Of a stretch of DNA of 19,644 nt, positions 1,614 to 19,644 are shown in pieces (position 1 is the stretch's first letter; every line of letters starts with the position of its first letter). The notes beneath the pieces are model-generated. The model had not been told where the DNA came from. It did no database searches and saw only the letters and a program-made list of their open reading frames with translations. The stretch is from a virus (Duplodnaviria; Heunggongvirae; Uroviricota; Caudoviricetes): IMG/VR virus record IMGVR_UViG_2648501186_000019, positions 1-19,644 of that record; one strand, given 5' to 3'. The translations under genes were made by a program, and so were the position numbers.

Positions 1614-1650
1614 GCCCCTATCGTTATAATACACGGTAGGGGCGTTTTTG
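1614..1650 (+). terminator. rho-independent terminator candidate upstream of the recombinase gene
   Basis: Stem GCCCCTATCG pairs with CGGTAGGGGC (one G-U pair) around a 10-nt loop containing TTATAAT, followed by GTTTTTGTTT. Confidence 0.55.
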
Positions 1651-1662
1651 TTTGGAAATGGT

Positions 1663-3474: not shown

Positions 3475-3618
3475 TTATCAGAGAAAATTGTCTTACTATT
3501 GCATTCTCTATCTGGATGTGGGTATAGGCGGGATTGAATACGGCAAAACTGAAACATTCCACTACTGCAATAAATCACTAAACAATATAAAGAATATTGC
3601 AAGTGTGGAGTGGAACTA

Positions 3619-5891: not shown

Positions 5892-6497
5892 TTAAACGAA
5901 GTTGATTTTACCCATGAAGTGCTTTTTCATCTTCTTCTGGATATTCTTCTTCATCGTTTTCTCATTATCTTTCCAACTACCCATGATGTTACTACGGTCT
6001 GTTTTCTTCAACACTGCAACAAGTCGCTTCCCTAGCTTTTTCTTGTTCTTCATGTCGGCTTTAACGGATGGATCGAGAAGCAGTATTTTACCAGTCTTAG
6101 ATTTTGTGGTTACATACTTCCCTATTTTCTTACCGTTTCTGAGTTGTGGAATGTTACCAAACTGGTTAGTTCGGTCATCAGTTACAGGAACAAATTTCTC
6201 AATATTATTACCACCTTCAAAGTAATATTTTAAGTATTTTTCCTGATTCTTCATGATGAAAACACTATGGTAAGACGTTTTACCGCTTGAGCGTATCCGG
6301 TTGTATGAATTGACCGCTTTCTGTGTGAACTTGGTCGGTCGATCTATCCTTGAATTGACTTTCTTCTGCAACTTTACCCGCTCATCTATGACCGCTAAAC
6401 CCAAATCCCTATGAAAGCTATTACTAGCTTTCTGTTTCCAACTCTTGATATCTTTTTTTACTTTATCAATATTGGATGTGATTATTGGATTAGCCAT
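5892..6497 (-). CDS. highly basic lysine-rich protein (201 aa), function unknown
   Basis: AGGGGG Shine-Dalgarno sequence; ATG 6497 lies 1 nt after the upstream stop. Very Lys-rich with a poly-basic C-terminus (KKNIQKKMKKHFMGK). Confidence 0.6.
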   Translation of the reverse strand: MANPIITSNIDKVKKDIKSWKQKASNSFHRDLGLAVIDERVKLQKKVNSRIDRPTKFTQKAVNSYNRIRSSGKTSYHSVFIMKNQEKYLKYYFEGGNNIEKFVPVTDDRTNQFGNIPQLRNGKKIGKYVTTKSKTGKILLLDPSVKADMKNKKKLGKRLVAVLKKTDRSNIMGSWKDNEKTMKKNIQKKMKKHFMGKINFV

Positions 6498-6498
6498 G

Positions 6499-6669
6499 TT
6501 AGCCCCCTAATAACGAAAAGACCCCCGCCAGTGTCCTTAGCAATTGTTCATCCACGGTCATAGCCGGGAGTTCAAGCCCAAAGGACGTTAGCAGAGGTCT
6601 AATTGCTACGTTATAAGTGAGGGCGACAATCAAGAGATAACCAAAATATTTCTTAAGTTTATTCTTCAT
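6499..6669 (-). CDS. small membrane protein (56 aa from ATG 6669); holin-like or immunity candidate
   Basis: AAGGGG Shine-Dalgarno sequence 7 nt before ATG 6669. Sequence MKNKLKKYFGYLLIVALTYNVAIRPLL... has a basic N-terminus and one or two hydrophobic helices; no lipobox. Confidence 0.45.
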   Translation of the reverse strand: MKNKLKKYFGYLLIVALTYNVAIRPLLTSFGLELPAMTVDEQLLRTLAGVFSLLGG

Positions 6670-6688
6670 ATATTCACCCCTTTTATTA

Positions 6689-6967
6689 TTATTTTTGTCT
6701 GAGTAAATCGATAACTTGGTCAAATTTGGCGTCCATCGCAACCACTTTCTTCTCTATACCGTGAAGGGTTTGTTCCATGCGATAAACTCTCTCGGCGATC
6801 TGGTCATGGTTACTTTGCATTGTTTCAAACTTCTGATTAAACAATGCATCATTGGACTCTAATTTCGACAATCTATTTTCTGTTGCTATTTGATTTCGGT
6901 GAAGTCTCCATAATCCACCACAAATTAAGGCGATAACACCGATACCGCCATATATAATTTCAGTCAT
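6689..6967 (-). CDS. single-pass membrane protein with a coiled-coil domain (92 aa)
   Basis: N-terminal TM segment (IIYGGIGVIALICGGLW) followed by a charged helical region. GGGGG Shine-Dalgarno sequence before ATG 6967. First gene after the terminator downstream of the gpJ-like gene. Confidence 0.6.
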   Translation of the reverse strand: MTEIIYGGIGVIALICGGLWRLHRNQIATENRLSKLESNDALFNQKFETMQSNHDQIAERVYRMEQTLHGIEKKVVAMDAKFDQVIDLLRQK

Positions 6968-7073: not shown

Positions 7074-10000
7074 TTAAGAAACAGTAATACCAGTAGTGGC
7101 TTTTTTAGTTACCATTACTGTTAAATCACTGATCCATGTGCTAGGCGTCCAGTTGTTGATTGCGCTTGATTGCACTTCAAAGGTCAAGGTCACAGCACCT
7201 TTACCCGCTGGCATATCAATAACACCTGAGTAAAGACCAGTATTACCGCCATACGCCCTATTATACAACTCTGACCCATTCTTACGAACAATCAGGCGAC
7301 AGGTGTCGTAATAGGTATTATTGTTCGACCCTTCACGCGCTCGCAATCCACCAAAACTAACAGCCGGAATAACGATTTGACGATCGAACTTGTGATCATC
7401 TTCAACGCGAACAGTGACCGTACCCTGTGGATAACCAGCATAACCATTATCAACGTTAACATCACGATGCGGGAACTTACGTCCAATCACCTTAACGAAA
7501 TCACCCTTAACCTGAGTAGCTTCAAGCATACCCTTAATAACACAGCTAGAGTTAATCGTGACGTTGTTCAGAGTACCAGAATCAGCAGTGATATTACCTT
7601 TAACGGTTGCATTCATGAACGTAGCGGACCCGTTCTTGTTGATATGCCATCCGGTCGATCCGTTCCAGTTGGAAGACTGGATATAGTTACCGATTTTAGC
7701 GTTATCAATTGCACCGTTTACGATCTTCGCGTTAGTGATTGCCCCGTCCTGAATCTTCGCGCTGTTAATTGCAGCATTGCCGATTTTAGCCGTGGTAATC
7801 GCCGCATCATTAATCTGGGCTGTACCAATTGCAGCATTACGAATCATCGCATTATCGAGATAAACCTTGTTACCTTCGATACCAAACGGGCATACTTCCG
7901 ATCCGTTCTGTGGAGCTACCGCGATTTTATCGGCATTAAAGATGATTCTCGTCGGTTGCGCCGGATCGTTGGTTGCGCTCATGTGAATACCAGCCACGCG
8001 ACCATCTGCATTAACCGCTAGATTGTATTTGCTGTTAATGGTTCCTTTCAAAGCATCGATTTTTACATCTGCTTCCTGATTCACACCAGCAATCTTGCCA
8101 TCCATTTCTACCCGAACTTGATCAATCTTACTTGCGCTTGCTGCCTCACTGGTAGCAATAGCTTGTTTCAGGGTAGTAGCAGATGCGCTGACTTCGGATT
8201 TAATATCGCCTTTCAGTTCAGCTTTAACCTGATCAATCTTAGTGGAGCTAGCTTGCTCGCTGGTAGCAATCAGACTCTTTAAGGTATTGGCTGAGGCTTG
8301 GACCGTCTGCCCTGTTTCGGTAGTGATTTGCTTATGCATTGCATCAATTTTAGCATCGGCATTAGCGCCAGCTTGAGCAATAGCATCCGCGATAGTTTCA
8401 TCTAAGCGGTCTTGTAAACCAATCAGGTCTTCCAGTGCTTCTTTGTCCTGATCGTCCCAGCTAATGGTAGATTTCATTTGCATGAAATACGGTTCAGACC
8501 AAACAGCATCATCCATACCGAAAATATCGTAGTGAGCACCACGGATATAATAATCACCGTCAGCAATATCAAAGGAAGTATGGCTAACACTATTCGTGCT
8601 TACTGCCCTTGCATCGGAGAACGTGTTATCGGTTGCATACTGGATGATTGACCCTGCATAATCATGTTCTACGTCATCTGCCCAGCTAACAAACGCAGTA
8701 TTAAAGCCACCACGCGCACTAAAACCTTTCATTGGCTTATGTTGTGGGTTGATAGCCACTAAACGCGCTGGGGCGCTCTCTGAGTTGTTATATCCCTTAG
8801 CTGATACTTCTACCGTCAGTTGACGCGAAAGGCCGTTAAACTGGTTCATATCAAGCGTATAAGTCCATGATTCAGGATCGCGGGTACGGTACTGAATAGA
8901 CTTACCAGCCTTGTTAGTCACCTTGATAATGTATGCTTCAAACAGGTCACTAAACTTGTTAGTTTCACCGTTGATCTCAACATCTAAGCCTTGCTGGTTA
9001 TCCCATTCGATAATCAGATCATTACCTTCGAAAGTTCCTGGCGTGCTACCCTGATTTTTGATTCGAATAACCGGAGTCGGCAATTCATAGGTAACAGTCG
9101 GATTCTGGTTAATCAGTTCTACCCAATCGGATCGCGCGATGATACCGAAAGCACAAACTCGGTAATCATAAGAGCGATCTTTCGCCAGTGCATTGACACT
9201 GAAAATTTGCTGTGAAGTCTGACCGAGCTTAATCCAGTTAGGTGATCCGCTTACACGGTAATCAATCTGGAAGCCATAACGGTTAAAATCTTCCGGTGCA
9301 TCCCATGTCAAAGTAACATTTTTACCGTAAATCGTCTCGCCAGTTGCCTTAATTCTGAAATTAGTAGGCTTCTGTACTGTCATTGAATCCGGTAAACCAC
9401 TTGGTCTATTGTCCGGTTTAGCCGCATAATCCAGATCTGTGTAAATCTGAGAATTATATTCTGTGGCGGTGATAGACAAAATACCAGCAATACCAGAATC
9501 AATGCTACGCTCAATAGAGATAATACGCCAAAGTGAATTATTCAGTTTCAATTCATCGTGGGTAACGCTGATAACGTCCCAAACTTCCGCGCTGAATGCA
9601 TCGGTAGTAGTGAAGTTGATAACCTGAGTAATACGAGATTTATTTCGTTCAATGCTCGCTAATTTGTCAATCTGGTTTTCATCTTTAACAAAGCGATATT
9701 CTACGTCTTTAGCAATAATGCGCCCATCTTGACGGATAGTAGCATCATTTTCAGCATCAGCCGGATAACGTAGCATTTGCTCTGAATAGTCTAAAGATGG
9801 TTCCTGATAGATTGCGTTAATGGTATTGAAATAACCGTTAGTGCCACCTGTTTTCAGGTTAACTTTCCCCATCATTATATTGTCTTCATTGAAGGTATGT
9901 TTAACAATATCAGGAGCATCCAGTTTCAGCGTAATACGTCCAAAGGATTCAAACATTACCCCGCCGAAAGTCTGCATCAATCCGGTCAAGTTCTCTTTAA

Positions 10001-10856
10001 AGCTGGCGTTCGGATCACATGCACCGTTAGAGTGCAAATTCATCTGGCGAACTTGAGAACGTACTTTCAGGAATGAATCAACGTTAATGTTTTCAATTGG
10101 TACTGATAAACCATATTTTTCATTTGTTAGGTAGTGGAAAATCTGATCCACGCCGTTAGTGCTAGCCTCAATAGCATTGGTTTCAAGGTTACGAATCTTT
10201 AATCCGCAAACGTCTACTGCTACCTGGCTATTTGGCTGGAGAATATCAACACCAGCAGCAAGAGATTTGTCATCACGACGTAACACAATACACATGGTTG
10301 CAATGCCGTTACCCTTGTAAGCATCGGTCCAGTCTGAGCCTAAATGAGTTTTTGCCAGTGACAATGCGGTGTTAGGATTCTTACCCGTGCGGAACTCGAC
10401 TTCTAACACTTTACGGTATTCTTCTTTAATGTTGCCCTTATCGAGAATGCCATCACGGATCGTCATGTTTCGACCAATCAGCACGTTTTTATTATCGATG
10501 AATAGTGCTTTGTAATGGTCAATTTCACCCTCGGCAATTGCGAAGATTTGCACTAACTTATTGTTTTCTTTCTTAGAAATTGCTTTGTAAACACAGATAG
10601 CACCAGTTCGAGTAGTACCAAAAATAACTGGTAATACTGTTTTAGGATCGTTTGATGTTCCTAGTGTCACTGCGTTATCTGGGCTTTGTACCTTCGGTGT
10701 TTTCGGTGCGCCTACAGTGGAAGCAATCAAAGACAATGCACCAGCACCAATACCGATAGCAACAGCCGCTAATGTTGAAATTGCCGCCACGGAAGCAGCA
10801 GCCATCCCAGCCGACGCACCAGCAATAACCGCGCCGACCAATACTTCTACGCCCAT
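7074..10856 (-). CDS. tail tip central fibre / host specificity protein (gpJ-like) with an N-terminal gpI-like domain and a lambda-J-type C-terminal receptor-binding domain (1260 aa)
   Basis: ATG 10856 with a GGGGG Shine-Dalgarno sequence, overlapping the upstream stop. Residues 1-50 are a Gly/Ala-rich hydrophobic segment, followed by APKTPK...VLPVIFG..R.G, reminiscent of the lambda gpI C-terminal half. The middle has FN3-like segments, a duplicated helical segment and 8-residue (A)IxNAKI repeats. The C-terminus (DDHKFDRQIVIP...VIDMPAGKG...VMVTKKATTGITVS) follows the pattern of the lambda J C-terminal domain as I recall it. Confidence 0.9.
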   Translation of the reverse strand: MGVEVLVGAVIAGASAGMAAASVAAISTLAAVAIGIGAGALSLIASTVGAPKTPKVQSPDNAVTLGTSNDPKTVLPVIFGTTRTGAICVYKAISKKENNKLVQIFAIAEGEIDHYKALFIDNKNVLIGRNMTIRDGILDKGNIKEEYRKVLEVEFRTGKNPNTALSLAKTHLGSDWTDAYKGNGIATMCIVLRRDDKSLAAGVDILQPNSQVAVDVCGLKIRNLETNAIEASTNGVDQIFHYLTNEKYGLSVPIENINVDSFLKVRSQVRQMNLHSNGACDPNASFKENLTGLMQTFGGVMFESFGRITLKLDAPDIVKHTFNEDNIMMGKVNLKTGGTNGYFNTINAIYQEPSLDYSEQMLRYPADAENDATIRQDGRIIAKDVEYRFVKDENQIDKLASIERNKSRITQVINFTTTDAFSAEVWDVISVTHDELKLNNSLWRIISIERSIDSGIAGILSITATEYNSQIYTDLDYAAKPDNRPSGLPDSMTVQKPTNFRIKATGETIYGKNVTLTWDAPEDFNRYGFQIDYRVSGSPNWIKLGQTSQQIFSVNALAKDRSYDYRVCAFGIIARSDWVELINQNPTVTYELPTPVIRIKNQGSTPGTFEGNDLIIEWDNQQGLDVEINGETNKFSDLFEAYIIKVTNKAGKSIQYRTRDPESWTYTLDMNQFNGLSRQLTVEVSAKGYNNSESAPARLVAINPQHKPMKGFSARGGFNTAFVSWADDVEHDYAGSIIQYATDNTFSDARAVSTNSVSHTSFDIADGDYYIRGAHYDIFGMDDAVWSEPYFMQMKSTISWDDQDKEALEDLIGLQDRLDETIADAIAQAGANADAKIDAMHKQITTETGQTVQASANTLKSLIATSEQASSTKIDQVKAELKGDIKSEVSASATTLKQAIATSEAASASKIDQVRVEMDGKIAGVNQEADVKIDALKGTINSKYNLAVNADGRVAGIHMSATNDPAQPTRIIFNADKIAVAPQNGSEVCPFGIEGNKVYLDNAMIRNAAIGTAQINDAAITTAKIGNAAINSAKIQDGAITNAKIVNGAIDNAKIGNYIQSSNWNGSTGWHINKNGSATFMNATVKGNITADSGTLNNVTINSSCVIKGMLEATQVKGDFVKVIGRKFPHRDVNVDNGYAGYPQGTVTVRVEDDHKFDRQIVIPAVSFGGLRAREGSNNNTYYDTCRLIVRKNGSELYNRAYGGNTGLYSGVIDMPAGKGAVTLTFEVQSSAINNWTPSTWISDLTVMVTKKATTGITVS
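7692..7859 (-). repeat. imperfect 24-nt (8-codon) tandem repeats inside the gpJ-like gene
   Basis: Protein-level repeats NAAIGTAQI / NDAAITTAKI / GNAAINSAKI / QDGAITNAKI / VNGAIDNAKI and matching DNA periodicity. Confidence 0.5.
8117..8330 (-). repeat. roughly 110-nt imperfect tandem duplication inside the gpJ-like gene (helical shaft segment)
   Basis: DNA blocks at about 8117-8227 and 8228-8330 share TGATCAATCTTA...GCTTGCT..CTGGTAGCAAT. Protein segments TLKSLIATSEQASSTKIDQVKAELKGDIKSEV and TLKQAIATSEAASASKIDQVRVEMDGKIAG are clear paralogues. Confidence 0.45.
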
Positions 10857-11275
10857 AGATCACCCCCAAAGCGATAAGCATCGTTATAATCAATTTCGTA
10901 AATCGGCTTGGTCGTCCAGATTCCATCTTCGGTAACGAGTCCATAGCCAGAATAATAAGGAGTCACGGAGTAATACTTACGGTTTCCTAATTTGTGATCG
11001 CGGATCAATAGATCGCCGTCCTGTAAATCATCAGTAACTAATTTAAAATGTTCTTTGATAGGCTGGAGGATATTGGTATATCCGCTAAGTTCTTTACAGA
11101 CTTTCAAGCCTTCTTCTTTCGTTGAATATTTTTTATAAAGAGAATTATATAGGTCAGTTCCAGCGAGAATATCGATGATCTTACATGCAATTAAATTGCA
11201 ATCATTCTCGCCTTGAACGAACTCCTGACCTACTAATGAATTGATGTAATCAGTGATAAGCCTAGTTTTTAGCAT
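10847..11275 (-). CDS. tail tip assembly protein, gpK-like with NlpC/P60-type Cys/His residues (about 142 aa)
   Basis: ATG 11275 preceded by GGAGG at 8-nt spacing. Motif GENDCNLIAC and downstream His (IRDHKLG) are consistent with a papain-like NlpC/P60 fold. Position between the gpL-like and gpJ-like genes. The track ORF extends to 11521 but overlaps the upstream gene. Confidence 0.5.
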   Translation of the reverse strand: MLKTRLITDYINSLVGQEFVQGENDCNLIACKIIDILAGTDLYNSLYKKYSTKEEGLKVCKELSGYTNILQPIKEHFKLVTDDLQDGDLLIRDHKLGNRKYYSVTPYYSGYGLVTEDGIWTTKPIYEIDYNDAYRFGGDLWA

Positions 11276-11324
11276 GTTGAATACCTCCATGCTGTTATTT
11301 ACTAGGCTTAGGGAGAAGGGATTA

Positions 11325-11978
11325 TTACTTTTTAGAGCTAAACCATTTTGATTCCGCGTTCCAGCGACCCGCCCTTGAGAAGAATAGATCGTTCTCGTTT
11401 CCTGGGTATGAGCGATGAATACCATCAGAAGCATGACTACGAGCGTTTTTATCGAGAACTTCCCAGATACTATTAAGCTGGAACTCTGATTCGTTGGTAC
11501 ATTCTTTATCCTTGTAGTCAATAGAAATATTGATGTTATCGACTACACCACGGAAAACAGGGTAAGTGGTTTCAACCTTGCCCGTGTTGGGGTTCAAGAA
11601 TACCATTTCGATTTTCACATCTGATTTATCGAATTGCTTGTTTCGAATGAGAGTAATGTATTCTTCTCGAACGTTCGAAACGTTAACGGTGATCCCGTTG
11701 TTGTTGATTTCTTTTTCTTCGGAGTTGGAAGAAATATCAAGAAAGTCACCGCTAGCGAGATAGGTAAATCCGTTATAGTCTAAGTCAAAGTACCCATCTG
11801 TAAGCCGTAGAACGTCCCCTGACGCGGTAATCACTTCGATAATGTGAAACATCGATCCGGTGGAAAAAAGCTGCGGTAGCGTCAATCTGGTAACTTCCTG
11901 CCCCGTCTGGTCGTTGTATACCTCGATAAAGTCAATATTGGTACAGAGTTTATTAAATGCGTCTTGAATAGTAGCCAT
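11325..11978 (-). CDS. minor tail protein, gpL-like (217 aa)
   Basis: Synteny (TMP, M, L, K, J) and N-terminal and mid-region resemblance to lambda gpL as recalled. Start ATG overlaps the upstream stop (TAATG). Lacks the C-terminal Cys cluster of lambda L. Confidence 0.55.
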   Translation of the reverse strand: MATIQDAFNKLCTNIDFIEVYNDQTGQEVTRLTLPQLFSTGSMFHIIEVITASGDVLRLTDGYFDLDYNGFTYLASGDFLDISSNSEEKEINNNGITVNVSNVREEYITLIRNKQFDKSDVKIEMVFLNPNTGKVETTYPVFRGVVDNINISIDYKDKECTNESEFQLNSIWEVLDKNARSHASDGIHRSYPGNENDLFFSRAGRWNAESKWFSSKK

Positions 11979-12538
11979 TATACATTCTCCACTAATTCAA
12001 ATTTCATCTTGCCAATCTGGGCGATGTTCCAATCGATGTTTTCAGTAGTGAGAAGAAATTCACCTTCAACGTTCTGATACTTGATCACCTCACCCGCTAG
12101 GACGTTCTGACGCAAGTTAGGGAAGAGTTTCATTTCACCACCTGATTTCACGTCTTCGGTGATCGTGTAGATTTTCTTGTGGTTCTCAAACTGGATGATA
12201 GTTCCCGCTTTCAGTGTTCCGGTGAAGTTGGAGAGTCTCACCTTACGCCCACCGCGAGCAGTACCAGCAGCAGCCGTAACCATCTGGCGTACATCACCTG
12301 TATATTTTGAAAAGTAAGACAGCGGAACAGTGAACGGACGACCAAAAAGGTGACGTGCTACAAATTCTTTTACTTCGTTAATATCCTGAGCCATGAAATT
12401 AGCTGTAAATTCTGCTTCATAGTAATGAATACCAGTAAAGCGACGCTGGAACTTACCAGAAATGGATTGCGCCTTGAAGAAAGGTTGTTTTGATTTAAGA
12501 GTAAAATCTGTGATTTTAATATTCTTGGATTTGAACAT
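11978..12538 (-). CDS. minor tail protein, gpM-like N-terminal region with a C-terminal extension (about 186 aa)
   Basis: First gene after the tape measure. ATG around 12538 is preceded by GGGGG inside the hairpin; the track start at 12574 is a GTG lying within the hairpin stem. Weak resemblance to lambda gpM in the first 100 residues. Confidence 0.5.
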   Translation of the reverse strand: MFKSKNIKITDFTLKSKQPFFKAQSISGKFQRRFTGIHYYEAEFTANFMAQDINEVKEFVARHLFGRPFTVPLSYFSKYTGDVRQMVTAAAGTARGGRKVRLSNFTGTLKAGTIIQFENHKKIYTITEDVKSGGEMKLFPNLRQNVLAGEVIKYQNVEGEFLLTTENIDWNIAQIGKMKFELVENV

Positions 12539-12541
12539 AGA

Positions 12542-12588
12542 AAAAGCCCCCATAGTTTTATGATTATTTATCACTATGGGGGCTTTTA
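12542..12588 (-). terminator. perfect 14-bp inverted repeat hairpin between the tape measure and gpM-like genes; attenuator/terminator candidate
   Basis: AAAAGCCCCCATAG ... CTATGGGGGCTTTT with an 18-nt AT-rich loop, an A-tract on one side and a T-tract on the other. The loop contains GATAAATA. Coordinates are +/-1. Confidence 0.5.
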
Positions 12589-12589
12589 A

Positions 12590-15109
12590 TTACATTCTAC
12601 GACGCTGGGCGTCTTCTACTGCTTGGGCAACAAGTTTCGGATGGCGTTTAATCGCTTCCATTACCATTGCATCAGAGCTATTAACGTTACCGCTAATTTG
12701 CAAAGGAGCATGTACCTCAATCGGCTGAGAGTTACCAGTGTTACCGGATTTCTGGTTAGCTAAGAAGTCTTTCAGATCGCCGTTAGTACGATCATCAACA
12801 ACTCGTTCCCCTTTCTGTAACAGCCATGTACCCTCACGCGGGATGTTATCAATACCGTCATGCGCCATACCGTCAACAGAGATTGATTTCATCTGCGCAA
12901 CACGAGCGATTGCAGAAGCATAGCTAGCAGCACCCATCGCAACACCCAACGGTCCAGGATACTTAGCCATAGCCTTAGTTGCGGCTTCGTGTGCGTTCAT
13001 CATACCCATTGCGATAGAAACGCCTTTCTGTGCTGCAAATAGTCCCTTAGTAACAGCGTTATTCTCTAAGCCAAATGCTTGTAACGCCTCACCAAATCCA
13101 CCGAACATATCCTGTGTATCTTGCAAGCGCATGTTATTGTATTTTAAGTCAATTTCACGCATTTTCTTTTGATGCGCTTCATTGAGTGCTTGCAGTGCTT
13201 TAAATTGTTCAGCTTGAGGCAGTTTATCAATGTTGGCTTTATGGGTAGCGTAATCAGCATTAGCATTATCAACATCAACGGCTTTCATCTCGTCAATAGT
13301 CTGATCACGTTCACCGAAGGAGTTAGCTAGACCACGAGATTTGATTTCTTGTAGTCCATCGGTCGCACCAGTACGGCCTTTGTAAGCATCTTCAATACGC
13401 TGTTTTTCTGCCAGATAATCCGCTAATTTGATGTTTTTATTCTGGTAGTTTTCTTCCAGATCTTTAAGGCTTTGTTCATAAACCTGTTTAGAAGCAGCCA
13501 ACATTTGCAGGGCTTCCATTGGATTTGCACCTAATACAGATTTACGGAAGTTTTCCGCGTTAGCATTAATTAGCTGGCGTCGTTTCTCTTCGTATTGTTC
13601 TTGCGTGATAATACCCTGTTTAAGAGCGTTATCTAACTTAGCAAGGTTTTCGGTAATCTGACGGTTAGAAGACGCCACAGCAGCTTGTGACGAGCTATAC
13701 AAAGAGATATTGATGGCCTTCAAATCATTGTAGGCTTTTTCTCTTAATTTTTTGGCTTCGTCTGCGGCTTTCTTCGCTGCATCTTTAGCTTTCTTGGTTT
13801 CTGGACAATCTGCGGCTGAATGCGCACCTTGCTTACATACAGGGCAAAGAGATTGAACACGGCGTTTATTCTCTTCTTCCTGTTTCTTTTTCAGTTCATC
13901 GGCTTGTGTTTGCAGTTCAGCAGCTTTGCGTTTGCGTTCTTGTTCTGCTAGATCTTCGAAGCTGGTTGCAGCACCGTTACTAACACCGCTTGCGATGGCT
14001 TCCTCTACCGCATCACCTAATGCTTTAGCACCTTTCTTGATGTTATCGGTAGTCAATGCTGGGATTTCAAAATCAAGAAAATCGGCATCAGCACCAAACC
14101 AGCCAGCAATAGTTTTACCACCCTTGCGGATCGCATTCTGTACTTTAGCGATAATCTCGGCTAGTTTGTTGTACAGATTAATCATTGTTTCCTGTACAGT
14201 TTTAACCGTCTTGATTATCGGGTTAATTGCTGTAAGTAGAGCATCCTTAGCTTTCTGGAATAACGGCGGGAGATTTTCGGTCACAAACTTACTAATAGCT
14301 TTCATACTCAAATAGAAAGTAGTATTAGTAAAATCCTTGTTGAAATAATCATAGATTAAGTTGAATCCTTTCGGGAGGAACGAAAATACATCCGCGAAAG
14401 CACCCATTACCGTTTTACCTAAAGCGGTCAAATTAGAACTTGCGTTTGAATACGCGGTCGCTGTTTCTTCTGAGACATAAGCGGCTTGTTGTTGGAGCTT
14501 AACTTGATGTTCCCAATAGTCGTTTGATTCAGACAAAGCACCGATCATCTTACTGGAATCAGAAGCAATTCGTTCCATACCCGCGATAATTTCAGAATGG
14601 CTTAGTCCTGCGGCTTTAGCTTGGTAATACCACATTTCAGCAGCTTTGCGACCGCCTTCTGGATCATCGGTAAAGGCTGCATAATCCTTGATATCGCCTT
14701 TGATCATTTTAAGCGCGGCTTGAAATTCCCCTGTACCGTCTCGCCATGCTTCCCCTAATTTCTCGGCTGCATCCTTGTTAATATCAAGAACTTTTTCGGC
14801 ATTCAGACCAAAGCCACTATAGACTTTTTCCATCTTCTGAATTTGTTCGATATTAACACCAAATTCTTTCGACATATTGGCATATTCGATAGCCATTTTT
14901 GCGCCACCAGCAGCAAGGGCAGTAAGAGCACCCAAAGCAGCACCAGCAGCCATCCCCAATGGACCCAGCTTACCTAACAATCCACTGATAGAGCCAGTTA
15001 AATTACCGACACCACCGGAGGCAAGACCATCAAGAATACCACTTGCTTTATCTGCGGCAGATTCAAGACCACCAGTAACGCCAGTAATATCAAATCTTAA
15101 TTCTGACAT
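12590..15109 (-). CDS. tail tape measure protein (839 aa)
   Basis: Position directly after the chaperone pair; length comparable to lambda gpH; long helical charged repeats and Gly/Ala-rich hydrophobic segments. Strong AAGAGG Shine-Dalgarno sequence before ATG 15109. Confidence 0.85.
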   Translation of the reverse strand: MSELRFDITGVTGGLESAADKASGILDGLASGGVGNLTGSISGLLGKLGPLGMAAGAALGALTALAAGGAKMAIEYANMSKEFGVNIEQIQKMEKVYSGFGLNAEKVLDINKDAAEKLGEAWRDGTGEFQAALKMIKGDIKDYAAFTDDPEGGRKAAEMWYYQAKAAGLSHSEIIAGMERIASDSSKMIGALSESNDYWEHQVKLQQQAAYVSEETATAYSNASSNLTALGKTVMGAFADVFSFLPKGFNLIYDYFNKDFTNTTFYLSMKAISKFVTENLPPLFQKAKDALLTAINPIIKTVKTVQETMINLYNKLAEIIAKVQNAIRKGGKTIAGWFGADADFLDFEIPALTTDNIKKGAKALGDAVEEAIASGVSNGAATSFEDLAEQERKRKAAELQTQADELKKKQEEENKRRVQSLCPVCKQGAHSAADCPETKKAKDAAKKAADEAKKLREKAYNDLKAINISLYSSSQAAVASSNRQITENLAKLDNALKQGIITQEQYEEKRRQLINANAENFRKSVLGANPMEALQMLAASKQVYEQSLKDLEENYQNKNIKLADYLAEKQRIEDAYKGRTGATDGLQEIKSRGLANSFGERDQTIDEMKAVDVDNANADYATHKANIDKLPQAEQFKALQALNEAHQKKMREIDLKYNNMRLQDTQDMFGGFGEALQAFGLENNAVTKGLFAAQKGVSIAMGMMNAHEAATKAMAKYPGPLGVAMGAASYASAIARVAQMKSISVDGMAHDGIDNIPREGTWLLQKGERVVDDRTNGDLKDFLANQKSGNTGNSQPIEVHAPLQISGNVNSSDAMVMEAIKRHPKLVAQAVEDAQRRRM

Positions 15110-15131
15110 ATTAACCTCTTATTCTTATTAT

Positions 15132-15163
15132 ATAAAAAAGCCCCACCGATAAAGGCAGGGCTT
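15132..15163 (-). terminator. rho-independent terminator/attenuator between chaperone and tape measure genes; copy 1 of a repeated hairpin
   Basis: On the - strand: AAGCCCTGCC, loop, GGTGGGGCTT (two G-U pairs), then UUUUUU. Near-identical to the element at 16413-16443. Confidence 0.55.
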
Positions 15164-15172
15164 ATAATTCAA

Positions 15173-15557
15173 TTAATCTGCGGTCGCCCTTAACTTATTG
15201 ACTAACGCCGGATCAAACATGCTCAACATTGCAGCTTTGCGATCTTCTTCTTTCTTACGCTCGATTTCTTCCAGTTCTTCTTTAGTCTTGAAGATTTTCT
15301 CTTCTTTGATTAACTGGAATTGGCTAGGTTTAATTTTATTAGCCATTTCTTTAGTCATTCCCTGAGAAGTCATATAAAGGGAATATTGAAGCATAGCGTT
15401 TTGCATGTCATGAAATGCGGGGGATTGTGGTTCTAAGTAAGTGTCGAAAATATGCAGTGACCAAAAAAGTGTCACTGGCATATTATCCATTTCATCTTTA
15501 CTCAATCCACGCCGCATCATCTGGCGGAAGTAGAAAGTTAAGAGCGGGTTTACTTTA
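15173..15557 (-). CDS. frameshift extension of the tail assembly chaperone (GT-like product), -1 frame relative to 15550-15858
   Basis: The -1 frame is open from 15571 through the G stop, and its first ATG (15520) has no Shine-Dalgarno sequence. The 21-nt overlap contains GGTAAAGTAA (15550-15559), where a P-site Lys slip from AAG to AAA is possible at the stop codon. Confidence 0.45.
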
Positions 15558-15858
15558 CCGATTCTTCTACCTTACTCGGTTCCGGCATCATAGAAGCCAG
15601 AGCAACCAGACCGATCAATTGTGCTTTAACAGTTGTGTAAAGGGCTTTAACTTGTTTAATATTAGTGAAAACTGGTTTACCGCTTTCATCTTCGATACAT
15701 TTCAGAATAGTACGTTCGTCGCGGTCTTCTTTATTGTTATTCTGAATGTGCTCGTTAAATTCCTGTACGCTCATCGGACGGGCATAAAATTTAAAGCCGT
15801 TGATTTCCATTGCTTCGCGTTTCGGGGAAAGAGCTTTCATTAAATCGTTGATATTCAT
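15550..15858 (-). CDS. tail assembly chaperone (gpG-like), 102 aa
   Basis: Small acidic protein immediately upstream of the tape measure with an overlapping -1 ORF. GAGGAAA Shine-Dalgarno sequence before ATG 15858. Confidence 0.6.
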   Translation of the reverse strand: MNINDLMKALSPKREAMEINGFKFYARPMSVQEFNEHIQNNNKEDRDERTILKCIEDESGKPVFTNIKQVKALYTTVKAQLIGLVALASMMPEPSKVEESVK

Positions 15859-15880: not shown

Positions 15881-15897
15881 ATTACGATATATTTATG
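15881..15897 (-). promoter_or_regulatory. CATAAATA box plus TATCGTAAT; second copy of the 15-nt motif seen at 945-959
   Basis: The - strand reads CATAAATATATCGTAATCATT; the box ends 31 nt upstream of ATG 15858 (30 nt at the + strand copy). It overlaps the stop codon of the 168-aa gene. Confidence 0.35.
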
Positions 15898-16399
15898 TGA
15901 TCTTTAAACTCTGCTTAGTGCCAGTCTTCTTAATGTTGGTAAGGAAAGCAGCCGGAGGATTGCTTAACCAATAGTAATGAAAACCACTTTGCATACTGTT
16001 ATAAGGAACAGTGACAGTAGCACCACCCAAATTAACGGTTATATTCCCCGCTCTACCGTTCTGGAGATATACAGCCATAGTAGGAGTACCGCCATTGAAT
16101 TGACCAACGATAACGCCAATCAGACGCCCTACGCCCACGTTTTCGGGGTTCTCCATAGATCCTTTACCGCGCATGTCAGTTACTGGATAGTTTGAAGCAG
16201 TTACACCCCAGTTATTACCCAATGAAGTAGACCACGATGCAGTAGCAACAACCGTATCCATACCACGACCACACATAGCACTCATGTTAGCTGGGCGACT
16301 AACCTTTAATGCGTTCATTGCTGCGGTCATCCATCGTTGACCAGTTACAGAAACAGCAGATGACCCGACCCAGCCGGGCTTATTAACGACATTTGCCAT
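15893..16399 (-). CDS. hypothetical tail-module protein (168 aa), Gly/Ser/Thr/Asn-rich
   Basis: GGAG Shine-Dalgarno sequence 9 nt before ATG 16399, just downstream of the terminator hairpin. Composition suggests a beta-rich structural protein; could alternatively be the tube subunit. Confidence 0.55.
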   Translation of the reverse strand: MANVVNKPGWVGSSAVSVTGQRWMTAAMNALKVSRPANMSAMCGRGMDTVVATASWSTSLGNNWGVTASNYPVTDMRGKGSMENPENVGVGRLIGVIVGQFNGGTPTMAVYLQNGRAGNITVNLGGATVTVPYNSMQSGFHYYWLSNPPAAFLTNIKKTGTKQSLKIT

Positions 16400-16412: not shown

Positions 16413-16443
16413 ATAAAAAAGCCCCACCATTAAGGCAGGGCTT
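16413..16443 (-). terminator. rho-independent terminator after the major tail gene region; copy 2 of the repeated hairpin
   Basis: The + strand reads AAAAAAGCCCCACCATTAAGGCAGGGCTT, against AAAAAAGCCCCACCGATAAAGGCAGGGCTT at 15132-15163. The stem is fully paired only in the - strand RNA (G-U pairs). Confidence 0.55.
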
Positions 16444-16573: not shown

Positions 16574-17050
16574 TCATCCACCAACAGTAAAGATCTTCTG
16601 TGGAACGGGCTTGCCATCAACCGCAAACGTCAGTTCACGCTGTACGACGCTCTCGTCATCACCAGTCAGATTGACTTTAGAAATGAATCCGTTAAATGCA
16701 GTACGAATACCAGTCTGCTTATCCGCTGATACGTAATACTCTACTTTAATCTGGATTCGAGTGCCGTCTTCGGCAGCTTTAATGAGCTTCTCGTGTACCG
16801 CATCACCCGGAATGTAGTTGATCACCAGTTCCAGATCAGGAACGTTCAGTTTACCAACCAGCTTACGGTTATACTGAGAAGAGAACGACTTCACCTCAAC
16901 CGTGCCCCTCTCAATGGAGTAGGAAGGCCAACCAGCACACTCTTTAATTTCTTCGTATGCTTCATCAGCAAGATCGGTGTTAGTGGTATCAGCGTGATAG
17001 AACAGACTTACCAAACCACCAGTAAAAATATCTTTGAATTGTTGAGACAT
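16574..17050 (-). CDS. major tail (tube) protein candidate, 158 aa
   Basis: Strong AAGGGG Shine-Dalgarno sequence; located upstream of the chaperones and tape measure; size and beta-rich sequence typical of small siphovirus tube proteins. Ends in TGA, followed in the same frame by 41 open codons (16451-16573). Confidence 0.55.
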   Translation of the reverse strand: MSQQFKDIFTGGLVSLFYHADTTNTDLADEAYEEIKECAGWPSYSIERGTVEVKSFSSQYNRKLVGKLNVPDLELVINYIPGDAVHEKLIKAAEDGTRIQIKVEYYVSADKQTGIRTAFNGFISKVNLTGDDESVVQRELTFAVDGKPVPQKIFTVGG

Positions 17051-17106: not shown

Positions 17107-19644
17107 TTATTTAGTTGCTTTCAGTTCGGCTAATTCAGCTTTAGTTTCGGCAAGTTCTTTAGCCATAGCATCAAACTTAGCGGTCATTTCCTGCATTGCT
17201 TTGATGATTAAAGCATTGACAGCAGAGTTAGAAATAGTCTTGATTGCTTCTGGATGTTCTGGATCTTCGGTGGATTGAATACCTACTGCTTCCGGCAATA
17301 CTTTTTCCAGATCCTGAGCAATAATACCTACTTCGCGTTTAATTACTGTGTCATCAGAAAGAGATTTAACTTTATCGTAGGTGTAGACTTTCAGGGAGTT
17401 TACTTTCTCTAATGCGCCGTCCTGTAATTCTTCCTTGTTAATTTTCAAACGGGAGTCGGAGCGAATGTAAACATCGTTAAAGCTACCGTTACGACCTGCG
17501 GTAAAGTCACCAGAGGCGTTAAAGTCAAAAGTTGCATCGTGTACGTGCATACGCACCATAGCATTACCGATAGTACCGCTAGGAACATGTACACCCATTG
17601 CTGCGATATGATATTTACCTTGATGGGTTGCTTTCCATACGTTATGAGCGGAATCGGTTGATTGTTGACAGTCGACCTGAATACCAGAAGCACGATCACG
17701 CCAGCTAGCCCAACTACCACCAGCAACGCTACCACGAATAAGACCATTACCGCCACCGGATACAGTGCCCGTTTCAAGGTGAATCATCTTACCGCCGAAT
17801 TTCCAGACTTCGGTTTGTTTCTCACCACGGAAGCGAATAACACCAGCGTCATCGCAATACATCAAGCCCAACTCTAAACCGTTTGGATCTCTAAACCAGA
17901 TGTGCTTATTGCCAGCGCGTTTAAACGAAATATCAGCACCAGTTGTTGTGATATTGCTAGCAACGTTTAGACTACCCGCCATAGAGAACAGAATAGGTCC
18001 AGTGCCACCCTGAGTACGTTCAGTATACCAGTGATAACTTGTAGCATCCTTACATTCAAAAACCTGTTTGCGTTGCTCGTTACCCCATGTGTGTAAGGTA
18101 AATTGAGACTGCGACCCCCGATTAGCATCAAATGCAATTTCACCAGATTCTACACGTACAAAGCCTTTAAAACGTGCAGTAATATTTCCGGTTTCATCAT
18201 TGCGTTCAGTAGAGAAATGTATACCTGTTGGGTCTTCTATTTGAAGAATGTTGTGTCGTCCACTGGCACTATCACCCAAATGGTTTATTTTCATGAAACC
18301 GCTAGCACCCTGACGCCCACTAGAAAAATGAAGAAATCCTTTTTCTACATAAACATCACCAGCAAAACGAGCAGCACGACTTGCACGTTCTAAGACTAAT
18401 GCACCTTCGTTACCATCACCACCCAAAGTAACATTACCGCTACCAAGATGGTAAATGAACGGACGATAGCCGTTCCAACTACCAAATTTATCATTTTCGG
18501 CAGTAGACAGAAGATATACGTTTTGACCATCATTACGCCAGAATGCACCATAGTTACCGTAAATCATACGGAATGCATCACTGTTAGCAGCTACATATTG
18601 ACCATTGGTGTATACAATTTTGGTAGCACCTGTGCTTAAAGATACTTGACCACTTGCTTCTAATTTAACAAAGTTTTTACCTTCGTCACTATACCATTGA
18701 AAATCGTTAGTATCTGTAGAACCAAAACCAAACCAGCCTTGACGTTTATTAGCCCCGTTTCGCTGATCCATATATTCAAAATAGTTACTACGACCAGTAG
18801 GACGCCACATACGAATCGCGTTATTGCCTTGCAGATGAAGTCTATCGACAAATAAACCATCACTACCAACAATTTTTAATACTTCTTTTTGGTCGGTGGA
18901 ACCAGTAGCCAAACGATACACATCACCTTGAACAGTTTCATGCCATATTGTTTCCGCCGCACGACTGCGGAATTTACGCATATATTTTTTATTGTTGTCT
19001 GGTACGTTATTAAGGCTCACAATATCATAGGTTGCTTGTGAGTTATTATCAAACATCAACGTTCCGGCTTTGTTTTCGGTGTTGAACATCGTAATAACAC
19101 GAGCATCGGTAACACCAACAGAAGGTTTAACGAGAGTTAATTCAGGAACATCATGTACTGTCAGAGTAACGCCATCAGTTTTACCGTATTCGACAATAAC
19201 GTTATCGGTGTAACGACCGTAGTTAACGTAGATATCGTAGTTATCACCGGAAGTATTAACCGCAAATACTTGATGAGTATTTTTAGAATTTCGACGATAC
19301 GCCGCAATACTAACGCCTTTCGGGTTATTGTTACCGGAACGGATGACAATTTCTACAAAGTCAACCTGATCATAAGAGTTAACGTTATAACCATTACCAC
19401 CGAAGATACGAAGCATTACCATTCGACCATTCTGTGGGATCGTAGCGGTTGCGATCTTGAAGTATCCACGAGTAGCATCACCAGAAGGAACGGTCATTCT
19501 AACGTTCTTGATGAACATCTTATCAACTTCGGCTTTGGTGTATGCACCAATCTCGCCAGGAGTCGGCTTATCACCTTCGTGATACATCTTATAGCTAAAG
19601 TTCTTCTGTCCTTCTCTATCAAAACCATAGGTTTCAACACGAGA
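17107..19644 (-). CDS. tail or neck fibre protein with a C-terminal intramolecular chaperone (peptidase S74-like) domain; 5'-partial, open to the window edge
   Basis: The frame stays open to 19644 (SRVETYGFDREGQKNFSYK precedes the first Met). The C-terminus (...YIRSDSRLKINKEELQDGALEKVNSLKVYTYDK...VGIIAQDLEKVLPEAV...AELKATK) matches the autoproteolytic chaperone domain of T5 pb1-type L-shaped fibres and endosialidases. The upstream body is Gly/Asn/Thr-rich, beta-type. Confidence 0.85.
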   Translation of the reverse strand, partial: SRVETYGFDREGQKNFSYKMYHEGDKPTPGEIGAYTKAEVDKMFIKNVRMTVPSGDATRGYFKIATATIPQNGRMVMLRIFGGNGYNVNSYDQVDFVEIVIRSGNNNPKGVSIAAYRRNSKNTHQVFAVNTSGDNYDIYVNYGRYTDNVIVEYGKTDGVTLTVHDVPELTLVKPSVGVTDARVITMFNTENKAGTLMFDNNSQATYDIVSLNNVPDNNKKYMRKFRSRAAETIWHETVQGDVYRLATGSTDQKEVLKIVGSDGLFVDRLHLQGNNAIRMWRPTGRSNYFEYMDQRNGANKRQGWFGFGSTDTNDFQWYSDEGKNFVKLEASGQVSLSTGATKIVYTNGQYVAANSDAFRMIYGNYGAFWRNDGQNVYLLSTAENDKFGSWNGYRPFIYHLGSGNVTLGGDGNEGALVLERASRAARFAGDVYVEKGFLHFSSGRQGASGFMKINHLGDSASGRHNILQIEDPTGIHFSTERNDETGNITARFKGFVRVESGEIAFDANRGSQSQFTLHTWGNEQRKQVFECKDATSYHWYTERTQGGTGPILFSMAGSLNVASNITTTGADISFKRAGNKHIWFRDPNGLELGLMYCDDAGVIRFRGEKQTEVWKFGGKMIHLETGTVSGGGNGLIRGSVAGGSWASWRDRASGIQVDCQQSTDSAHNVWKATHQGKYHIAAMGVHVPSGTIGNAMVRMHVHDATFDFNASGDFTAGRNGSFNDVYIRSDSRLKINKEELQDGALEKVNSLKVYTYDKVKSLSDDTVIKREVGIIAQDLEKVLPEAVGIQSTEDPEHPEAIKTISNSAVNALIIKAMQEMTAKFDAMAKELAETKAELAELKATK

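Follow-up and report, generated by a model that had tools for sequence, protein, structure and literature searches.

The window, that is, the whole 19,644-nt stretch of DNA analysed here, belongs to a temperate lambda-like siphovirus prophage of Enterobacterales / E. coli. One of its ends is occupied by a fibre gene with the following features, where residues are numbered in the partial protein.

17107–19644, minus strand: 3′ part of the fibre gene (2.5 kb; 845 codons plus stop).
18595–18894, minus strand: recombinant patch, residues 251–350 (sliding-window identity table).
18451–18762, minus strand: Gp34_trimer-type shaft domain, residues 295–398 (Pfam PF21446, 1.3e-28).
17110–17460, minus strand: intramolecular chaperone, residues 729–845 (117 aa), comprising Peptidase_S74 and a C-terminal helical tail.
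17458–17463, minus strand: predicted autocleavage site Arg728^Ser729 in DVYIR^SDSRLK (codons checked in the DNA; alignment to S16 and fPS).

Translation of the minus strand evidenced a frame that stays open from the stop codon at 17107–17109 up to the window edge. Because the complete fibre reaches 1153–1200 aa in full-length relatives, the window copy, with its 845 open codons, would be devoid of ~310–355 N-terminal residues, which bears out the truncation at the window edge noted in the preliminary description. Megablast aligned positions 17184–19644 to Krischvirus gp37 with 78–84% DNA identity (about 80%), and the window fibre matched PHROG 1699, the "long tail fiber protein distal subunit", at 3e-113. 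At the protein level, the full-length L003 fibre and gp37 of the Krischvirus GoldenSnicker are 76% identical over 911 aligned positions (residues 290–1200). In full-length relatives, whose fibre N-terminus corresponds to a part of the gene outside the window, this end matched PHROG 1699 positions 6–51 at 8e-20, and residues 1–51 of the L003 fibre showed 43% identity to the gp37 N-terminus. Judged by these alignments, the window gene is homologous over nearly its whole length to gp37, which forms the distal subunit of the long tail fibre in RB49-like T-even phages (Krischvirus).

From N- to C-terminus, the fibre is laid out as a gp37 N-terminal motif of ~50 residues, a repeat region of ~235 residues that looks like a coiled-coil, a Krischvirus gp37-like shaft, and an S74 chaperone. 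The repeat stalk sets it apart from T-even gp37, where residues ~55–70 stand in its place. Pfam found both Gp34_trimer and Peptidase_S74 in the window copy as well as in the full-length relatives. The shaft domain matches the T4 gp34 crystal structures 4uxe and 5nxf, and a PDB sequence search with the fibre returned matches limited to this gp34-type domain (T4 gp34 and one other tail fibre protein). Sliding-window identity further revealed that the T-even likeness of the fibre is confined to the shaft, the N-terminus and the chaperone being prophage-specific. Within the recombinant patch, identity rises to 94–96% with GoldenSnicker gp37 and is 32–54% with sibling-prophage fibres; the fibre therefore appears to be still recombining with virulent Krischvirus phages.

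The S74-type intramolecular chaperone proposed earlier for the fibre C-terminus was corroborated by the profile of Pfam PF13884 (Peptidase_S74), which matched residues 729–787 with an E-value of 8.7e-14 (52 bits versus a cut-off of 22). In the translation, the chaperone motif reads ..NDVYIRSDSRLKINKEE.. and contains a Ser729/Lys734 dyad, five residues apart. SDSRLK coincides with the first position of the S74 profile and aligns with SDRRIK of S16 and SDGRLK of the fPS phages, which are cut at DLNVS^SDRRIKK and DVYIR^SDGRLKI, respectively (PMC7917993). Because both cuts align there, the expected cut falls between Arg and Ser, before the Ser; the hallmark written as S|DSRLK in the preliminary description thus holds for the motif but not for the position of the cut. 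In S16, autocleavage removes the last 113 residues and exposes the docking site of gp38 (PMC7917993). By analogy with this system, whose gp37 and that of the fPS phages share with the window fibre an S74 chaperone with the DVYIR^SD cut motif (alignment; PMC7917993), we infer that the fibre is cut at DVYIR^SDSRLK, and the chaperone is predicted to be released after trimerisation.

The genes downstream of the fibre gene, in the direction of transcription, comprise a tube gene, an adhesin gene, and the rest of the tail module.

16574–17050, minus strand: short tail tube protein, 158 aa (PHROG 158; AlphaFold/Foldseek).
16419–16443, minus strand: terminator-like hairpin with T-run after the tube gene (pattern scan, consensus match only).
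15893–16399, minus strand: short gp38-type tail-fibre adhesin, 168 aa, two genes downstream of the fibre (Gp38_N, PHROG 1121).
16274–16390, minus strand: adhesin N-terminal attachment domain, residues 4–42 (Pfam Gp38_N, 2.1e-15).
7074–15858, minus strand: rest of the siphovirus tail module (Pfam and PHROG matches).

The 168-aa protein matched PHROG 1121, "tail fiber adhesin", at 4.8e-34, and a homologue carries the PGAP label "receptor recognizing protein Gp38". Its full-length matches make up a short adhesin family (PHROG 1121, Stx phages), the full-length homologues being annotated as adhesins in Stx phages, and the homologue search returned six near-identical proteins only. The S16 gp38 chain 6f45_D aligns with adhesin residues 9–65 only, both Trp of this segment being conserved. 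The likeness to T2/S16-type gp38 thus lies in the Gp38_N attachment domain. Unlike T2/S16 gp38, however, the window protein is 168 aa long and holds no polyglycine runs, nor the polyglycine sandwich with its glycine-rich sequence and hypervariable loops. The tube gene stands between the fibre and adhesin genes; this separation and the missing polyglycine domain are counter-points to an adhesin role.

The tube gene starts 56 nt downstream of the fibre gene, which bears out the adjacency stated in the preliminary description, and this order is conserved across the lineage. Its 158-aa product matched PHROG 158, "major tail protein", at 4e-19 and three Pfam tube families at ~1e-4, under their cut-offs. 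The AlphaFold model matched the lambda gpV, NF5, and 80alpha tubes (Foldseek E 3e-6, prob 1.0), and the protein is the probable major tube subunit. A near-identical copy of the 16419–16443 hairpin lies at 15138–15163. A terminator call for another hairpin, 3′ of the fibre gene, was dropped: its coding-strand stability is no better than that of shuffled sequences (z −1.2), and a T-run is absent. The remaining tail module encodes two tail assembly chaperones, an 839-aa tape measure, a distal tail protein, a hub, a DUF6950 protein, and a J-like tip protein (1260 aa). It is therefore of siphovirus type, as its tape measure, distal tail protein and J-like tip denote, and no gp34, gp35 or full gp36 gene was found.

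Megablast with the whole window identified no related siphovirus among sequenced phages, but only Krischvirus pieces, namely the fibre and a UvsW-like helicase. Among public assemblies, 79 index blocks of the collection nonetheless contain the identical tube protein, and the fibre-tube arrangement occurs in ~20 of 5426 complete E. coli chromosomes. One lysogen is E. coli ETEC1738, whose prophage copy is integrated in hicB. We read 24 contigs of the assembly-collection blocks; gene order, shown for eight loci, was common to all eight save for optional endonuclease inserts. These data bear on the idea that a prophage contig gained T-even DNA through misassembly, or that the prophage is defective and its fibre a disused remnant. 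The two separate segments holding the fibre and the helicase are indeed ~80–85% identical to Krischvirus DNA, IS1 sits inside the helicase gene of one prophage copy, and DCP80, the sole record of a phage isolate that has the module, looks chimeric. However, the same junctions recur in closed E. coli chromosomes and many independent assemblies, which is why misassembly was rejected. The prophage-specific fibre N-terminus and chaperone also speak against such an origin, as do intact reading frames and complete sets of head, tail, lysis, and integration genes, so that we regard an artefact or dead remnant as very improbable.

Tube-like genes flank the fibre gene on both sides. The upstream one is known from relatives, in all of which the gene directly upstream of the fibre encodes a 277-aa tube-protein paralogue, hereafter the anchor. 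This position falls past the window edge, and synteny suggests that the window's own element carries the gene as well. The anchor matches PHROG 158, with a 376-position "major tail protein" family as its best PHROG, and it aligns with the 158-aa tube protein at 25% identity (E 3e-12; hhalign probability 98.9%, E 2e-17). Its AlphaFold model is mostly well resolved over residues 12–160 (pLDDT 76–95, with a low-confidence loop at 53–68) and matches lambda gpV and other tubes, whereas pLDDT in the C-terminal half is 30–60. The tube/Hcp fold of residues ~12–160 is common to the 158-aa protein, both meeting lambda gpV, the YDC107 tail core, NF5, and 80alpha (Foldseek ~1e-6, prob 1.0). Behind this domain follow a conserved "shoulder" domain and a C-terminal tip that bears an end motif of T-even gp36. 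A search of the anchor profile against PDB sequences yielded nothing meaningful, no Pfam or NCBIfam model covers the family, and the database matches inspected are annotated "hypothetical". By tblastn with the anchor and a distant family member, the poorly annotated DCP80 was the only phage-isolate record with an anchor.

The anchor profile recovered 143 cluster representatives at E<=1e-10, and in most of its best 150 matches the alignment covers about the first 240 residues of a protein of 400–1600 aa. Three anchor-family representatives (seven retrieved, six scanned) end in an S74 chaperone domain, and a 1204-aa family member contains the Pfam T4_gp36 domain. In two distant contexts, a gene fusing the tube domain to a fibre directly precedes a short tube gene, with the chaperones and tape measure coming next. 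Since these distant relatives fuse a tube-like domain to a whole fibre in the same position, we infer that a tube-protein paralogue likewise anchors the window fibre.

The anchor ends in the T-even gp36 motif ..KPTxxExGAVxxxDRIDFGEF-COOH, its last 28 residues being 46% identical to the Krischvirus gp36 C-terminus; gp36 itself ends in ..DFGYY in T4 and in ..DFGTF in Krischvirus. The motif is nearly invariant across 24 anchor homologues from six genera, and in longer anchors (465 and 698 aa) a fibre shaft is inserted ahead of it. A Proteus chain even consists of three links, that is, an anchor, a 198-aa connector with both joint motifs, and a 675-aa fibre. The binding partner of the gp37 N-terminal region is trimeric gp36 (PMC3004832), and because the fibre runs parallel from N- to C-terminus, gp36 would touch gp37 through its C-terminal end; T4 gp36 as a query drew no match from PDB sequences. 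The matching motifs suggest that the anchor C-terminus would bind the fibre N-terminus in the same manner.

In a more conventional arrangement, the fibre would be fixed by its own N-terminus to a collar or the tip complex. The 277-aa protein would then be a usual major tail protein whose C-terminal domain serves as decoration, and its end motif would be one generic to fibres. Such a domain would not be without parallel, as lambda gpV has a C-terminal Ig-like domain, and the "major tail protein" family that is the anchor's best PHROG fits this assignment; Stf of Ur-lambda, moreover, builds its own collar (PMC12617516). The KPTxxDxGA portion of the motif also repeats inside fibre shafts, so that specificity is limited to the terminal DFGxF. 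Nevertheless, all 19 carriers of a DFGxF end among 1604 ORFs were gp36, anchor or connector proteins, always preceding a gene with the gp37 N-terminal motif, and the 18 copies of the latter motif in the same set all begin the next fibre gene; neither motif was seen in other contexts in these ORFs. The fibre N-terminus resembles the region of gp37 that binds gp36 rather than a collar domain. Homologues whose C-terminus extends into fibres of 400–1600 aa, some with a chaperone, would be implausible as major tube subunits, and a separate short tube gene always lies beside the chaperones and tape measure. The fibre-length homologues make the anchor an unlikely major tube protein, and we consider the conventional arrangement improbable.

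Collectively, these data make it likely that a jointed side fibre, of which the window encodes the distal part that binds the receptor, is held by the tube-paralogue anchor on the tail of a temperate lambda-like prophage. The anchor, which would have arisen by tandem duplication of the tube gene, would assemble into a ring aligned with the tube, with its C-terminal arms coming together as trimers that grip the fibre N-terminus through a gp36-gp37 kind of joint. Six arms would then accommodate two fibres per ring. At the distal end, the chaperone would drive fibre trimerisation and then cleave itself off at R^SDSRLK, as in S16, thereby uncovering the surface on which the 168-aa gp38-type adhesin would dock; contact with the receptor would fall to this adhesin. 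A counter-point to the ring is the symmetry mismatch between its six-fold order and the three-fold fibres, and the known siphovirus side fibres use a separate 12-mer collar (Ur-lambda, PMC12617516).

Where along the tail such a ring might sit bears on the preliminary description, which had deduced a neck/collar whisker or head-proximal side fibre from the gene position. The anchor ring would then be the last one under the tail terminator, or the terminator itself. The order of connector-like genes (96 and 140 aa), anchor, fibre, and tube would suit this placement, since tail genes of phages often track physical order. Tail terminators such as lambda gpU share the tube fold, and searches with Pfam, PHROG and NCBIfam turned up no terminator in the small genes that precede the anchor (96 and 140 aa). 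Still, small genes of 165, 96, and 140 aa suffice for adaptor, stopper, and terminator. The gene position is better explained without a neck function: tandem duplication of the tube gene probably gave rise to the anchor and thereby to the order of fibre gene ahead of tube gene. Nor is the fibre a fibritin-like whisker: it is a T-even gp37 homologue, that is, a receptor-binding distal fibre, accompanied by a gp38-type adhesin gene. By rough estimate, the fibre measures ~90 nm and the tube ~130 nm (839-aa tape measure), so that a head-proximal fibre would fall short of the tip. The side fibres of T5 sit at the tip end of the tail. Those of Ur-lambda do so too (PMC12617516), and a head-proximal location thus seems unlikely.

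The jointed fibre held by a tube paralogue shares with the long tail fibres of T2, S16, and Krischvirus a homologous gp37 shaft and the same gp37 N-terminal motif, and with T-even gp36 the C-terminal end motif, here on the upstream partner of the fibre. Conversely, T-even phages have a contractile tail, whereas the particle encoded here is that of a temperate siphovirus, as known from its genes, in which gp34, gp35, and full gp36 are absent and the gp36 end motif resides on a tube paralogue. Tube-fold duplicates in fixed in-line positions, with precedent for extra outward-facing domains, are found in lambda gpM and other distal tail proteins, T4 gp48/gp54, and two Nocturne116 distal tail proteins, but in the sources consulted none is described as ending in, or fused to, a long receptor-binding fibre. 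Among siphovirus side fibres, Stf of Ur-lambda relies on a separate Tfa chaperone, not on an S74 domain, and T5 pb1 is fixed close to the tip by a distinct collar protein, its gene lying downstream of the tip genes. Like the window fibre, pb1 serves a siphovirus as a side fibre and ends in an S74 chaperone; cleavage removes this domain from pb1 (PMC7289586). The comparison with pb1 made in the preliminary description therefore stands for the chaperone domain but not for the remainder of the fibre, as Pfam and PDB sequence searches detected no shaft homology and no pb1 match beyond the S74 family; besides, pb1 binds its receptor directly, with no gp38-type adhesin. Stf, too, is a jointed fibre at the side of a lambda-like tail; it speeds adsorption and is related to T4 gp37 in its distal part, setting a precedent for fibre-gene exchange between temperate and T-even phages (PMC12617516). 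Unlike the window fibre, it anchors itself, with 12 N-terminal domains forming a collar at the gpV/gpM junction that bears four fibres (PMC12617516), and the stf gene lies downstream of J.

The fibre type is thus already known, whereas anchoring by a tube paralogue appears to be undescribed. We lean, if only slightly, towards a broader view in which tube-paralogue domains built into the tube anchor a large class of tail fibres, the E. coli version being split at a gp36/gp37-type joint that allows distal fibre and adhesin swaps with virulent T-even phages. If the anchor is confirmed, it would represent a new structural mode of fibre attachment and, if this holds true, a third way to fix side fibres on non-contractile tails, beside collars and baseplate proteins; it would also provide a portable plug-and-socket joint for grafting T-even fibres onto siphovirus tails or tailocins. 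Here, a complete T-even distal fibre system, with joint, shaft, chaperone, and adhesin, would serve a temperate lambda-like tail. Host-range determinants accordingly move between lytic myoviruses and gut E. coli prophages, and this exchange of fibres across lifestyles bears on host-range prediction and phage therapy.

The window ends within a long fibre gene followed by a siphovirus tail module, with these features:

17107-19644, minus strand: 3' part of the fibre gene, an open frame of 845 codons from the window edge to a stop codon at 17107-17109
16574-17050: putative tube protein, 158 aa, 56 nt downstream of the fibre gene; PHROG 158 'major tail protein', 4e-19
15893-16399: putative gp38-type adhesin, 168 aa, two genes downstream of the fibre gene; Gp38_N (Pfam 2.1e-15)
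Rest of the window: siphovirus tail module with two tail assembly chaperones, an 839-aa tape measure, a distal tail protein, a hub protein, a DUF6950 protein and a 1260-aa J-like tip protein

In Pfam searches, residues 295-398 of the partial fibre matched the Gp34_trimer shaft domain (E 1.3e-28) and residues 729-787 matched Peptidase_S74 (E 8.7e-14; 52 bits, cut-off 22), bearing out the C-terminal S74-type chaperone proposed in the preliminary description, and the 56-nt gap likewise confirmed the fibre gene as lying just upstream of the tube gene. The S^DSRLK region named there is present in the translation (..DVYIRSDSRLKINKEE..), but the cut position has to be moved. The S16 chaperone is cleaved at DLNVS^SDRRIKK and the corresponding site of fPS phages is DVYIR^SDGRLKI (PMC7917993); by analogy, the fibre is expected to be cut at R^S, with the serine on the released side and 117 residues freed.

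DNA of the segment 17184-19644 is 78-84% identical to gene 37 of RB49-like T-even phages (genus Krischvirus), which encodes the distal subunit of the long tail fibre, and no match outside this genus was found among 50,697 phage records. Full-length fibre genes, taken from contigs encoding an identical tube protein and from one closed E. coli chromosome, specify proteins of 1153-1200 aa. In the fibre of the sibling prophage L003, residues 290-1200 share 76% identity with gp37 of the Krischvirus phage GoldenSnicker and the first 51 residues share 43% with the gp37 N-terminus, the two being separated by a coiled-coil-like repeat region of ~235 residues (..NKxDADxKIxxLTxTV..). Residues 251-350 of the window fibre are 94-96% identical to the Krischvirus protein versus 32-54% to sibling prophage fibres, while its chaperone shows the opposite pattern, with 92-100% identity to the sibling fibres and 60-74% to Krischvirus; the exception is sibling L009, whose fibre is only 69% identical over the last 45 chaperone residues. 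The window fibre thus reads as a mosaic, and these opposite patterns point to virulent T-even phages still exchanging sequence with prophage fibres.

The 158-aa protein scored ~1e-4 against three Pfam tube families, under their cut-offs. Its AlphaFold model (19 homologues, mean pLDDT 70.7, low-confidence loop at residues 42-69) matched lambda gpV, the YDC107 tail core and the NF5 and 80alpha tubes (Foldseek E ~3e-6, prob 1.0). We take this protein as the one that would build the tube because its gene adjoins those of the chaperones and tape measure, major tail proteins of other phages are homologues of its type, and a terminator-like hairpin lies just after the gene. This hairpin (16419-16443, minus) has a near-identical counterpart before the tape measure gene (15138-15163, minus), both reading AAGCCCTGCC..GGTGGGGCTT plus a T-run, and the pair brackets a block of the adhesin gene and two chaperone genes.

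Every related locus keeps one gene order: large terminase, a 165-aa protein, portal, protease-capsid fusion, 96-aa, 140-aa and 277-aa proteins, fibre, short tube protein, (adhesin), chaperones and tape measure. The 277-aa gene, outside the window and annotated 'hypothetical', yielded no Pfam or NCBIfam match. Its product matched PHROG 158 (6e-9) and aligned with the 158-aa tube protein at 25% identity across 155 residues (E 3e-12; hhalign probability 98.9%, E 2e-17). Residues 12-160 of its AlphaFold model are mostly confident (pLDDT 76-95), except for a loop of low confidence at 53-68; the model matched lambda gpV and other tubes. Alignment and model alike indicate that the N-terminal half of this protein, hereafter the anchor, is a tube-protein paralogue.

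The opposite end of the anchor resembles a T-even fibre joint. Its final 28 residues, KVYSDVERPTAQDVGAVSITARVDFGEF, align with the extreme C-terminus of Krischvirus gp36, QLYHEGNKPTPADVGAVPLNAVIDFGTF, at 46% identity; T4 gp36 ends in ..VQDFGYY, and in T4 the gp37 N-terminal region is bound by trimeric gp36 (PMC3004832). Comparison of 24 anchor homologues (Escherichia, Shigella, Salmonella, Providencia, Edwardsiella and Proteus) shows D273 and G275 unchanged throughout, with almost no variation at F274 and E276. A census of every ORF with 60 aa or more across the window and the comparison loci (n=1604) returned 19 ending in D[FLA]G.[FYE], all 19 being gp36, anchor or connector proteins, and 18 with [IFV][QKR]F[KR]R[STG], each of these 18 opening the next fibre gene; no other context among the 1604 ORFs contained either motif. 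Three variants further show, at the sequence level, both ends behaving like portable modules. Proteus has a three-link chain: an anchor with the C-terminus ..IDFGEF, a coiled-coil connector (198 aa) with the gp37 N-terminal motif at its start and ..MDFGTF at its end, and a fibre of 675 aa that again opens with the gp37 motif. Longer anchor homologues (465 and 698 aa) retain the N-terminal ~266 residues, carry a fibre shaft inserted before the same end motif, and are each followed by a fibre gene with the gp37 motif at its start. Finally, Pfam recognises a T4_gp36 domain (E 1.4e-7) in a 1204-aa relative whose C-terminus reads ..VIDAGTF. Escherichia phage DCP80 (PQ671644), a 141-kb record filed under the T-even genus Gaprivervirus, contains at 1-25 kb a siphovirus head and tail module related to the window prophage, with an anchor-fibre fusion of 698 aa and a distal fibre of 745 aa; the record may be a chimeric assembly.

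Searching the anchor profile against 1.84 billion representative proteins gave 274 matches at E<=1e-3, of which 143 reached E<=1e-10; in most of the best 150 listed, coverage was confined to the N-terminal ~240 residues of a protein 400-1600 aa long. Seven matches were retrieved and six of them scanned against Pfam; the S74 chaperone domain ends three of these long proteins, and the remaining long ones carry other fibre domains or a DFGxF-type end motif. In two distant contexts, a fused tube-domain fibre (816 and 1150 aa) occupies the same place as in the window lineage, after two small connector-like genes and directly upstream of a 151-153-aa tube gene, chaperones and tape measure, making the fibre-upstream-of-tube order ancestral to the phage lineage. 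This order is most simply explained by tandem duplication of a tube gene, one copy of which turned into a fibre attachment domain; in the E. coli prophages, the fibre is split into anchor and distal part at the T-even-type joint.

The match to PHROG 1121 'tail fiber adhesin' (4.8e-34) spans the whole 168-aa protein, residues 9-65 of which align with S16 gp38 (structure 6f45), both tryptophans of the segment being kept. Polyglycine motifs are absent from its C-terminal part, and along its entire length it is related to short adhesins from Stx phages (45% identity) and from an Edwardsiella T4-like phage. What makes this adhesin gp38-type is therefore the attachment domain alone; its binding domain differs. 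In S16, chaperone release uncovers the gp37 surface used for gp38 docking (PMC7917993). Several Krischvirus genomes, among them GoldenSnicker and RB49, have the gp38 gene far from gene 37 (~106 kb in RB49 by record coordinates), so separation of fibre and adhesin genes is not peculiar to the prophages. The Salmonella relatives L016/L017 lack a gp38-like gene; between their S74 fibre and tube genes lie three small genes (13088-14033; 99, 114 and 99 aa) with no domain matches, which may represent another kind of tip or accessory system.

The same element resides in E. coli ETEC1738 as a ~36 kb prophage that splits hicB. The region occurs in ~20 of 5426 complete E. coli genomes, always chromosomal, and the index of a public assembly collection lists the exact tube protein in 79 blocks, from which 24 contigs were read; the closed-chromosome copies and the many assembly blocks thus exclude an assembly artefact as the source of the fibre-tube arrangement. 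Homology of the ETEC1738 prophage to the window starts at window position 282; positions 1-281 form a different flank (ORF 1-273, PHROG 6147, unknown function), so the window copy may be inserted at another site. The window also encodes an endolysin, a large serine recombinase (1648-3342, plus strand, 564 aa) and a UvsW-like helicase (3610-5109, plus strand), the DNA of which is ~84% identical to Krischvirus DNA and ~77-86% to Krischvirus uvsW, making it a second T-even-derived segment in this temperate siphovirus prophage; the ETEC1738 copy is broken by IS1. Three small ORFs (92, 80 and 201 aa; 5892-6967, minus strand) without family matches lie directly downstream of the J-like tip gene, a position held in many siphoviruses by receptor-binding or superinfection-exclusion genes. 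Sibling prophages carry homing-endonuclease-like genes (345-422 aa, CapR/DUF723 domains, plus T5orf172 in L003) upstream of the fibre gene (L001/L003) or in the tube-adhesin gap (L005-L008); the window has none.

From the homology, motifs, synteny and fold documented here, we infer the physical steps of a possible assembly. The anchor would form a ring in line with the tube, and its C-terminal arms would trimerise and grip the fibre by a joint of the gp36/gp37 type, with room for two fibres per ring of six arms. The chaperone would aid fibre trimerisation and then cut itself off at R^S, and the short adhesin would dock on the freshly exposed tip and bind the receptor. Approximate lengths of ~90 nm for the fibre and ~130 nm for the tube, together with the Ur-lambda precedent, favour a ring at the tip-proximal end, which we consider probable; a head-proximal ring is rather unlikely, and other ring arrangements are more doubtful still. 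The neck whisker of the preliminary description found no support.

The closest known system is the distal half-fibre of T2, S16 and Krischvirus, which has in common with the prophage fibre the shaft, N-terminal motif, chaperone with cut site, and adhesin attachment domain. The prophage fibre differs in its carrier particle, in the lack of gp34, gp35 and a full gp36, and in its short adhesin. T5 pb1 shares the chaperone principle alone. The closest siphovirus analogue, Ur-lambda Stf, anchors itself through its own N-terminal domains, forming a 12-mer collar around the gpV/gpM junction (PMC12617516). Tube-fold paralogues with fixed positions are already known, for example gpM (PMC12617516) and the two distal tail proteins of Nocturne116; full-text literature searches returned no relevant description of one ending in or fused to a long fibre. 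The fibre is a variant, itself new, of an already known fibre type, and it is the probable mode of anchoring that makes the finding interesting.
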